Assembly (NCBI GenBank): GCA_964016885.1
Contig: OZ024748.1
Coordinates: 1,302,001 to 1,366,000 of the forward strand
Reading direction: 5' to 3'
DNA length: 64,000 bases
Origin: Eledone cirrhosa
Lineage: Eukaryota
A program made the translations under genes and the position numbers. Position 1 is the first letter of the stretch. Each line of letters starts with the position of its first letter. Under the pieces are notes generated by a model, which saw only the letters and a list, made by a program, of their open reading frames with translations, was not told the origin of the DNA and made no database searches. This document shows, piece after piece, positions 10,044 to 45,121 of this stretch.

Positions 10044-10229
10044 ATGTTGTATTGGAAATATTACCTGAAAGCTACCGTTTGGCTCTGCCTAATCAGTATA
10101 GCGTTCTCTGGTGATCCTGAAGCTTGGTTGCTTAGCTATGGTACAAATCTTATTAATATGACTAATGAAAATGTAGAAGCGGATTGGAAGTTCCAGGTTG
10201 ATATGACTCCAGAAAAACAGCAAGCTAAG
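10044..10229 (+). CDS. ACE: ACE-like (peptidase M2) first coding exon, variant A: signal peptide + N-terminal lid helix, 62 aa
   Basis: MLYWKYYLKATVWLCLISIAFSGDPEAWLLSYGTNLINMTNENVEADWKFQVDMTPEKQQAK; hydrophobic leader; aligns without gaps to recalled human ACE2 1-62 (L29, A46, W48, T55, E57, Q60 identical; W/F28, Y/F32, F/Y50 similar); phase-0 donor AAG|GTAGGA. Confidence 0.78.
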
Positions 10230-10245
10230 GTAGGAAGAAATAATA

Positions 10246-10672
10246 ATTGTTTCTACTTTAGGCACAAAGCCAGCAATTTTTTTTTTTGGGGGGGGGGGGG
10301 TCGATTAAATCGACTCAGTGCATTACTGGTACTTTATTTTATCGACCCCGTAACGATTAAAAGCAAAGTTAACCTCGGCGGGATTTGAACTCAGAACGTA
10401 AATACTGCTACGCATTCGTCCGATGCCCTAACGATTCTGCCATTCCAGCCCCTAATAATGGTTTCTTATATAGGCACAAGGCCAGCAATTTTGGGGGAGA
10501 GGAAAGTCGGTTAACTCGACCCCAGTGCATTACTGGTACTTTATTTTATCGACCCCCGTAACGATGAAAGGCAAAGTTAACCTTGGCGGAATTTGAACTT
10601 AGAACGTTAAGGGCCGAAACTATGTGCTACAAAGTATGTTGTCCGTTCTACCGATTCTGCCAATCCACCGCC
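10246..10672 (-). mobile_element. two adjacent tRNA-derived SINEs (family 1)
   Basis: reverse complement has A-box TGGCAGAATCG(G/T) and B-box (G/A)AGTTCAAAT, then the family core TTTGC(C)TTT(C/A)ATCGTTACGGGGTCGATAAAATAAAGTACCAG. Confidence 0.85.
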
Positions 10673-10711
10673 CATAATAATAATAATAAAAATAATAACA
10701 ATAATAATAAT

Positions 10712-11222
10712 GATTTCATTTATTAGCCACAAGGGCCGACATGTAGGGGACAATACAAAGACAGGGACAGTGGGGGTTTACAATAAGGTCGAGTAAAAGT
10801 GCACAATGGCAAGACTAATTTAACAATGAAAATATAAAAATATAAAATAAACTATGCAAAATATAACAAAATAAATTCCCCGATAGGGGGTGGACGACCC
10901 TGGGGTGATTCGGGTACCCCACCAATCCTGAACCACCCTGCGCTTCTAGGGCACCCAGTAGAGCACCCCTCTCCTCAAGTTAGCCAGCCTATAGGTGCAT
11001 GGTCAGAGTAGGCCCATTCACACGAGTCATTCTCGCCACATTCACCCACCTTTTAGCAAATGTACGGGGGGGGCAGCACTTCTCTCTCCACCCTCACCCT
11101 CCTTTCCAGGTGAAACTTGAAGAAGTTGATGAGGGATTGGCCGAAGAGAAAAGTGTCTGTCTTTAGTCCTTTCAACCTGGTCCACCATATAATCTCTTTC
11201 GCAACTGCCACCAGACAGAGGA
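10712..11222 (-). mobile_element. 5'-truncated Tx1 LINE 3' end inserted in (AAT)n
   Basis: minus translation LCLVAVAKEIIWWTRLKGLKTDTFLFGQSLINFFKFHL..VNVARMTRVNGP matches the end of ORF 1800-2915; terminus TGGCTAATAAA shared with the copy at 33011. Confidence 0.88.
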
Positions 11223-43400: not shown

Positions 43401-43806
43401 AAGAATGTATCTATAAAAACATTTGAAAAATTGAGCAAGTATAAGGACCTGGAGATAGAAATTGGAAAAATGTGGAAATTGAGAACTAAAACAATACCAG
43501 TGGTTGTAGGCGCTCTGGGAATGATACCTAAGGGGTCTAACGACTACTTATCGCAAATCCCAGGAAACCCGCGTATAGGAGAAATACAAAAGATAGTACT
43601 AATGGGAACTGCCCATATACTAAGGAAGATCCTGTCAATATAAGTACATCACAAGTCTAAACACTAAGGATGCATGTGTGAATATGTGTGTTCTTTCTTG
43701 AACATGGCGGACCTTGTTGTCTCTTGAGGTCACTGGTTGTGACTTGGTGATAACTCGTATAAACATAAAGCAAGATAAATGCAAATAATAATAATAATAA
43801 TAATAA
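40409..43806 (+). mobile_element. R4/Dong-like RLE non-LTR retrotransposon, RT + Zn knuckle + RLE, one frameshift near 42670
   Basis: WKSPGKD, NYRPITCL, WIDYKKAFDS, GIFQGDSLSPLLF, HLFYMDDLKLF; CRVC..ETIDHIISMC, RHD, RPDII, IDMSVP, EKLSKYKDL; (AAT)n on both sides; frame stays open upstream of 40585. Confidence 0.93.
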
Positions 43807-44360
43807 ATCTGGAACGCACTTCGGAAAACAAAATTAACAACAAACGAGGAAGAATATATTGAGACAGATGGCACTAAGGAATACTGGTGGAACCTGAAAA
43901 TAAAAACTGCCACCAAATTAAAGCGCAACCGGCCTGATATTGTTGTTTGGGACCACACATTGAAAACGTGTTCTGTTGTGGAGATCAGTGCCCACTTGTG
44001 GTAAACGTTGTCAGAAAAATACAGAAGGAGGAGGACATCTACGGACCATTGATGAGGAGTTTGCAAATCCAGTATCCAAGATACACCTTTAGCTTCATAC
44101 CCATCATTATTGGAGCTACGGGTTATTTACCATCCCGCTTGGACCAAAGTATAACTGAACTTGGATTTGCGGACAAAGAGCGCAGCTCCCTAATTCATAG
44201 TCTACAAATGGCTGCGATAGCTGGCACCTTCAAAATTTGCAAAACATTCTTACGATTCAAGGGATGACAATTTCTTTTCTTTTACAGCCTTGTCACCAGG
44301 AAGGTGGCCGGTCAAAAAAATATACTCGAAATTAAGAGAGAGATAACATACATACATACA
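43807..44360 (+). mobile_element. RLE 3' fragment, copy 3 (same family as 3080-3700), frameshifted
   Basis: near-identical to 3147-3700; different downstream flank. Confidence 0.9.
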
Positions 44361-44929
44361 CACATACATACACATATACATACACATATACATACACATA
44401 TACACATATAGACCCGCAAACACTGACACGCACACTCAATAGTTTTTTCACTCTTTCTCACACATACACACGCCCCCCGCCCCCCTCTATCTCTCTCTTT
44501 CTTTTTCTCACAAACAATAACTTTCTTTCGCGGACTCTCCCTCTCTCTCACTCTTTCCCTCCCTCTCGCTCTCTCTTTCTCTCCCTCTCACAAACACACA
44601 CACACACAATAACTTTCTTTCGCGCACTCTCCACCGCCTCTCTCTTCTCCTCTCTCTCTCTCTCTCTGCCGCTTTTCTCTTCCTCTCTCTCTCTCTCTTT
44701 CTTTCCCCCTCTTTCGCTCTCTCATAGACACGCTCATATTCTCAATAACTATCTCCGTCCTTACCTCACACGCTAACTCTCTCTCTCCCTCCCTCACACA
44801 CACACTAACTCTCTCCCTCCCTCATATACTAACTCTCTCTCTCTCTCTCCCTCCCACACACACACTAACTCTCTCTCTCTCTCCCTCCCACACACGATCT
44901 CTCCTGGACAATCATCATTAATCTAAAGT

Positions 44930-45121
44930 ATGATCTCCCCAACGAAAGTCTTATGTGTGAGTCTGCTGTGTGTAGTAAACGTTTCCCTACTAACGTCTGC
45001 TGGAGAGGTGGAGAAATGGTTGGAGAAATTCGCTGAGGAGTTTACAGAAGCCTGTACAGAGTTTAGTGTCGCCTCCTGGGTTTACACCACCGACATGACA
45101 GACGATCATCAAAAGAAAATG
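44930..45121 (+). CDS. ACE: ACE-like (peptidase M2) first coding exon, variant C, 64 aa
   Basis: MISPTKVLCVSLLCVVNVSLLTSAGEVEKWLEKFAEEFTEACTEFSVASWVYTTDMTDDHQKKM; ASWVYTTDMT compares with ACE2 ASWNYNTNIT; phase-0 donor ATG|GTAAAA; 29/64 identical to variant B without gaps. Confidence 0.83.

Follow-up and report, generated by a model that had tools for sequence, protein, structure and literature searches.

Three homologous first coding exons lie in tandem ahead of a single ACE-like peptidase body in Eledone cirrhosa and are probably alternative first exons of one gene

The window, which is the whole stretch of 64,000 nucleotides at G000:C8:1302001-1366000 (contig OZ024748.1 of Eledone cirrhosa), was analysed together with its flanks as a region of 264 kb (C8:1162001-1426000). 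Three exons on the plus strand of the window, named A (10044-10229), B (30215-30406) and C (44930-45121), were each found to be a first coding exon with an ATG, a hydrophobic leader, the lid helix of an angiotensin-converting enzyme (ACE) and a phase-0 GT donor. The positions, start codons and open frames (62, 64 and 64 codons) given in a preliminary description of this DNA, as well as the donors at 10230, 30407 and 45122, were all verified, and so was the identity of B and C at 29 of 64 residues (45.3% over 64 residues). The lid parts of A, B and C could be aligned without gaps, as had been claimed for their common motif. By hydropathy alone, the hydrophobic core of each leader reached Kyte-Doolittle values of 2.6-3.2. 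The variable segment consisted of a predicted signal peptide and one helix, ~40 mature residues out of ~605. The term "variable lid" was therefore only partly appropriate: all three exons carry lid sequence, but what varies is the first lid helix and not the whole lid. No N was present anywhere in the 264 kb, and hence no assembly gap that could point to an artefact was found across the locus.

The rest of the gene was found just outside the window. The intron following exon C runs from 45122 to 64000 and for 530 bases beyond the window end on the plus strand, and the constant body starts 531 bases beyond that end. This constant region comprised exons 2-13 (12 exons, 1701 coding nt) on the plus strand at C8:1366531-1395296, with all 11 internal introns being of the GT-AG type. 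Exon 2 begins in phase 0, and joining it to A, B and C gave full open reading frames of 628, 630 and 630 aa, respectively, each of which retained HEMGH and the downstream Glu. The claim that the three exons share one downstream body was thus confirmed, in that there was a single ACE body and all three were in phase with its exon 2. Exon 8 carries HEMGH, and exon 9 contributes the third zinc ligand, the Glu of a GFHEAVG motif spanning exons 8-9; the ACE zinc ligand set is described in PMC12531861. All nine matches to Peptidase_M2 (PF01401) on C8 were above the cut-off and covered model positions 128-581; exons 2-3 were assigned by reading frame and RNA, the Pfam matches starting at model position 128. 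Exon 11 was aligned to human ACE with an E-value of 3e-16, and the K, H and Y of the K-x-H and PY segment, which we take to be the pocket for the substrate C-terminus, were kept. A hydrophobic C-terminal tail of ~17 residues, read from hydropathy, is a candidate transmembrane or GPI anchor. Judged by its domain and motifs, the gene is a single-domain ACE-like peptidase of family M2. It was also observed that exon 2 (L018:531-695) has a cluster of four N-glycosylation sequons in a stretch of 15 residues, a short way past the variable helix. Each isoform has 11 sequons, one of which is isoform-specific; that of C sits in the leader.

The view that the peptides of A, B and C are ACE lid segments was borne out by profile, genome and PDB matches. 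Exon C matched Peptidase_M2 of Pfam at model positions 4-44 with an E-value of 0.0011, below the cut-off, and exons A and B singly gave no Pfam match; the M2 profile check proposed earlier for the peptides was therefore weakly positive for C, under the cut-off, and negative for A and B. Likewise, exon C alone matched ACE2 chains in the PDB and aligned to ACE2 up to residue 62, which is presumably where the first coding exon of human ACE2 ends. No ACE chain in the PDB was matched by A alone or by B alone; with the three combined, ACE chains were matched with a best E-value of 2e-4. When a foreign ACE first-exon peptide (P0004) was searched against the 3.0-Gb genome, all three candidates that matched were B, C and A, with E-values of 7.6e-4, 0.059 and 1.46, respectively. 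Because this search returned just these three exons, their likeness to ACE first exons should not be due to chance. A profile from which A, B and C had been left out picked up exactly these three exons in the 264 kb, with E-values from 1.7e-7 to 3.9e-12, and no other site at E ≤ 1. This test was partly circular, as an A/B/C profile had originally been used to find four of the five profile members. The expectation that more variants might lie outside the window was not supported, as none was found by profile searches in C8:1162001-1426000. A weak match at C8:1246194 was considered as a fourth exon and rejected, as it had no leader or motif and was lost with wider profiles.

Searching proteins with an A/B/C profile gave four short foreign first-exon peptides, which were unnamed and belonged to clusters of 1-2 members. 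The codon after the aligned donor was Val in all four, read from peptide sequences only, which suggests an ancestral intron at the donor position. A, B and C themselves were absent from the protein collection searched, and no full-length relative or annotated isoform was found among the 6, 34 and 6 candidates scored in three protein searches. A metagenome scan with exon B gave 599 pattern matches, none of which was confirmed, and the ESM Atlas with exon A gave no match at 0.9; an ACE cluster that came fourth at 0.78 was regarded as a lead only. In the tree of eight lid segments, A was the most divergent and had a long branch, and none of the five inner branches was supported, so that it settles neither a single origin of A, B and C nor their order. 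At the nucleotide level, 30377-30617 (B) and 45092-45332 (C) were ~71% identical over 247 aligned nt covering the exon end and the intron start. This collinear match is a possible trace of the duplication of B and C; apart from it, the flanks of A, B and C had mainly dispersed repeats in common.

No second body was found for these exons. By tblastn and blastn, there was no second copy of any constant exon in the 264 kb, and nothing left over from exons 2-13 was detected between A and C. Within the window itself, tblastn detected no HExxH or other ACE exon, in agreement with the preliminary description, and its statement that these are not three complete genes was upheld by the lack of a full ACE exon set between the three first exons. 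In the whole genome, the Peptidase_M2 search gave 17 exon-sized matches among the 24 candidates scored, nine on C8 and eight on C4; among the best candidates scored, the HEMGH exon had two genome matches and exon 2 had one. Hence two ACE bodies, on C8 and C4, were found among the candidates scored. The paralogue at G000:C4:349967854-350033406 (L041, L042, L053-L058) was also a single-domain ACE with HEMGH; only one lid exon was found in 110 kb upstream of it, and its leader is apparently on a separate exon ~0.9 kb upstream. With one body and no extra constant exons, C8 has three lids for one body.

Exon 2 was present in four sequencing runs of one study, none of which was recorded as RNA. Three runs continued unspliced through exon 2, whereas the contig of the fourth, X1, matched exon 2 only and was then spliced. 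X1 is termed RNA-like here solely since its contig is spliced, and it represents one sample with no tissue stated. Contig 8 of X1, with a length of 2085 nt, read from the end of C into exon 2 and on to the start of exon 3. Its length corresponds to a 350 nt front end, the 1701 coding nt of the constant region and a further 34 nt, which end in an (AT)n microsatellite after the stop, and this fits the whole gene model. In this one sample, no A or B form was seen; there was a single unbranched contig with C, suggesting that C was the main form in X1. Since contigs drop minor forms, the missing A and B forms neither show nor exclude their use. Of the proposal that the first exons are spliced to a common body, the junction of C and exon 2 was thus seen in RNA, and those of A and B were not seen in X1. 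The objection that only the last exon might be transcribed may still hold, the single RNA-like run having given just C in contigs that drop minor forms. There were no variant letters over exon 2 in the four runs.

A candidate promoter was found before exon B, where a TATA box (30074-30080, plus strand) was followed by an Inr-like element (30100-30105). The spacing of 28 nt was canonical, and the 5' UTR up to the ATG of B would be ~113 nt long. With consensus patterns for TATA and Inr, five non-microsatellite pairs were found on the plus strand of the 264 kb, and by simple arithmetic the chance of one pair falling within 300 nt of any of the three ATGs was ~0.02. No TATA+Inr pair was found before A or C. 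The motif is not specific, as shown by a comparable pair at 21532 that is followed by no ACE exon. This pair, a textbook TATA+Inr at 21532-21567, has no coding exon behind it; an exon was sought there and rejected, there being no ACE-like frame, and the pair is possibly a transposon promoter or belongs to a non-coding first exon. A LINE-type element with a 765-aa reverse transcriptase frame was observed on the plus strand at 40375-43640, ending ~1.3 kb before C, and it might have affected the promoter of C.

The donors of A, B and C scored 9.4, 5.6 and 4.4, respectively, that of C being in use, and the 11 constant donors ranged from 1.9 to 10.7. The best acceptor-like sites within 200 nt before the three ATGs scored -0.4, 2.0 and 0.5, compared with a median of ~5.5 for the real acceptors; the site before B was at least as good as 3 of the 12 real acceptors, and the sites before A and C equalled or exceeded 2-3 of the 12. 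For the 39 lid codons, rough estimates of dN among A, B and C were 0.46-0.96, and dS ranged from 1.8 to saturation. At the degenerate codons where B and C have the same residue, however, only 3 of 14 differed, and with 39 codons only, the B-C pair may be younger than a dS of 1.8 implies. At nine structural lid positions picked by us from ACE alignments, both A and B kept all nine family-type residues. In a neutral simulation with our own simple mutation model, the frame and the nine residues survived in 1-6% of runs at 0.1 substitutions per site, in 9-22% at 0.05 and in 39-54% at 0.02. As the frames and residues are intact despite the high dS and the low neutral survival, A and B would have been under constraint during almost the whole of their existence. 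Silencing as recent as 0.02-0.05 substitutions per site would frequently go unseen, with 9-54% of simulated runs still intact.

The reading we favour, with a probability of roughly 0.6, is that A, B and C are promoter-chosen first exons of one single-domain ACE-like gene, in the manner of GCNT2 and UGT1. An ancestral first coding exon, with the signal peptide, the first lid helix and a phase-0 intron, would have been duplicated twice in tandem. Its own promoter would start each copy, and each copy would be spliced to the same exon 2, bypassing the downstream copies, which lack a strong acceptor. The products of 628, 630 and 630 aa would have an identical catalytic body and a different first lid helix. 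Beyond the observed anatomy, frame compatibility, single body and splice from C through exon 2 to exon 3, we infer the current use of A and B from their intact frames, kept family residues and normal donors and from the TATA+Inr before B; separate promoters and tissue or stage specificity would likewise follow from this model rather than from direct observation.

It is also conceivable, though unlikely, that only C, or C and one other exon, is used now, and that A and/or B are working first exons that were recently silenced. The RNA showed the C form only. A is the most divergent copy; its branch is long, its helix has the smallest hydrophobic moment among the three exons (0.23), and no promoter motif stands out before it. 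The frames, ATGs, donors and all nine chosen residues are nevertheless intact in both A and B, so that the neutral interval must be short for both, and B has its TATA+Inr. A smaller probability was given to an arrangement in which the three isoforms are all made but selected by splicing, A, B and C being mutually exclusive exons that follow a common non-coding leader exon. The 158 nt upstream of the ATG of C in the RNA contig, known by length alone, would leave room for such an exon, an AG lies one base before this ATG, and the counts of real acceptors that score no better than the sites before B (3 of 12) and before A and C (2-3 of 12) could be taken in its favour; on the other hand, the acceptor-like sites are poor beside the median of real acceptors (-0.4, 2.0 and 0.5 vs ~5.5), B has a TATA+Inr of its own, and in PMC8373072 homologous N-terminal swaps are ascribed to alternative promoters.

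Slightly less probable still is that A and B have no connection to this body, being either leftovers of an array of ACE genes, the bodies of which have disappeared or been mis-assembled, or the heads of short secreted products with other exons. Small unrelated exons could have escaped the ORF scan, which considered stop-free frames of at least 100 aa. Against this stand the absence of N in the 264 kb and of any exon 2-13 remnant between A and C, the two bodies found genome-wide, the lack of variant letters over exon 2 in four runs, and the retention of the lid residues, which would not be expected of orphan exons. If A and B were silent, a corrected gene model and two recent relic exons would remain.

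Under the favoured reading of promoter-chosen first exons, the variable exon contributes the leader and, of the three lid helices that PMC12025037 describes for ACE, the first. The lid of human ACE can open and close above the catalytic cleft, with its residues 59, 62, 66 and 70 in contact with inhibitors and peptides (PMC12531861, PMC12025037); Asn66 and Asn70 are in the S1 subsite (PMC12025037, Table 3), and Trp59, Tyr62 and Asn66 touch ligands at the non-prime exosite (PMC12531861). Aligned via human ACE, the equivalents of cACE positions 59/62/66/70 were T/N/D/Q in A, Y/F/L/Q in B and C/F/S/T in C. The cavity-lining positions would thus be polar or acidic in A, bulky and hydrophobic in B, and small in C. 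Because these S1 subsite and non-prime exosite positions differ among A, B and C, the isoforms may differ in peptide preference, for which the odds are about even if the rest holds. The four positions also vary among unrelated ACEs, and the differences need not be adaptive; the array may mainly provide separate expression control. The full proposal, that the three exons are active from tissue-specific promoters and that the swap of the lid helix yields three ACEs with different peptide preferences, is accordingly tentative and somewhat doubtful as a whole.

The layout itself is of a known kind, represented by GCNT2, UGT1 and tandem duplications of 5' coding sequence, and for ACE it is apparently unreported. 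According to PMC1885805, tandem homologous first exons stand ahead of one constant exon set in both GCNT2 and UGT1, and the three first exons of GCNT2 are driven by individual promoters and spliced independently. A, B and C are similar in being tandem homologous first coding exons with a common phase ahead of one constant set. In GCNT2 and UGT1, however, a large domain comes from the variable exon and the splicing has been demonstrated, whereas here this exon encodes a signal peptide and one helix; one of three splice junctions was seen (C, in one RNA-like run), and one of three exons has a promoter motif (B, as a motif only). Moreover, those two systems are vertebrate, and here the family is peptidase M2 and the host is an invertebrate. 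Human tandem duplications of 5' coding sequence, which are used via alternative promoters and reach at least three copies in some genes (PMC8373072), likewise give homologous alternative N-termini from duplicated first coding exons, and neither angiotensin nor ACE2 occurs in the main text of that paper. Somatic and germinal ACE of mammals arise from alternative promoters of one gene with different N-termini (PMC1925091), but these forms have two domains and one domain with a unique N-terminal region, respectively, and no homologous lid-helix swap. The present gene resembles single-domain ACE and ACE2 (PF01401) in its domain, zinc motif, lid, leader and hydrophobic tail; the C4 paralogue, in contrast, has one lid exon and apparently a separate leader exon. 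Chelicerate sDscam genes reportedly have tandem 5' variable cassettes, which makes them a similar case in an invertebrate, but they are adhesion receptors with many cassettes and not an enzyme. In the literature searched, whose coverage left out most subscription papers, no report of an ACE gene with duplicated first exons was found, and the available text of a bioRxiv preprint on cephalopod venom mentions ACE once, for captopril; its supplements may list this gene.

If the favoured reading is true, this would be a variable-first-exon gene for an enzyme outside vertebrates, and ACE would have been diversified here by exon duplication and not by gene duplication, with just two ACE genes found in the genome. 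Natural ACEs differ in lid and body together, whereas three lids on one body would isolate the contribution of the lid. The locus would then offer a naturally occurring test of the part that the lid plays in ACE specificity, which three constructs could address.

For the rest of the window and its neighbours, long high-complexity stop-free frames of at least 100 aa were scanned, covering 91 of 129 candidates in the region and 41 of 42 in the window, where the frame of A itself was excluded. Twelve of the 41 window ORFs had Pfam matches (eight to retroelement domains, three from a tandem repeat and one weak match to a zinc-finger), and no M2 domain was present among the 41. The remark that only repeats lie between and after the exons agreed with these matches, which were derived from retroelements or repeats save for the weak zinc-finger match. 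A minisatellite with a 44-bp unit and 82 copies (96% matches) occupies 12461-16075 of the window, and it contains open frames of up to 500 aa with spurious Pfam matches. Downstream of the ACE gene, an F-box/LRR gene was observed on the minus strand (L021:713-1558 and 4106-5038), its nearest frame lying ~1.4 kb past the ACE stop in a tail-to-tail arrangement. On the other side, 15 kb before exon A, an exon-like frame on the plus strand (L024:4819-5232; C8:1296819-1297232) with a glycine-rich transmembrane helix, a basic tail and no Pfam match is probably the end of an upstream gene. A further gene was observed on the minus strand at L035:2198-9329; it has three or more Ig-domain exons as well as a signal peptide.
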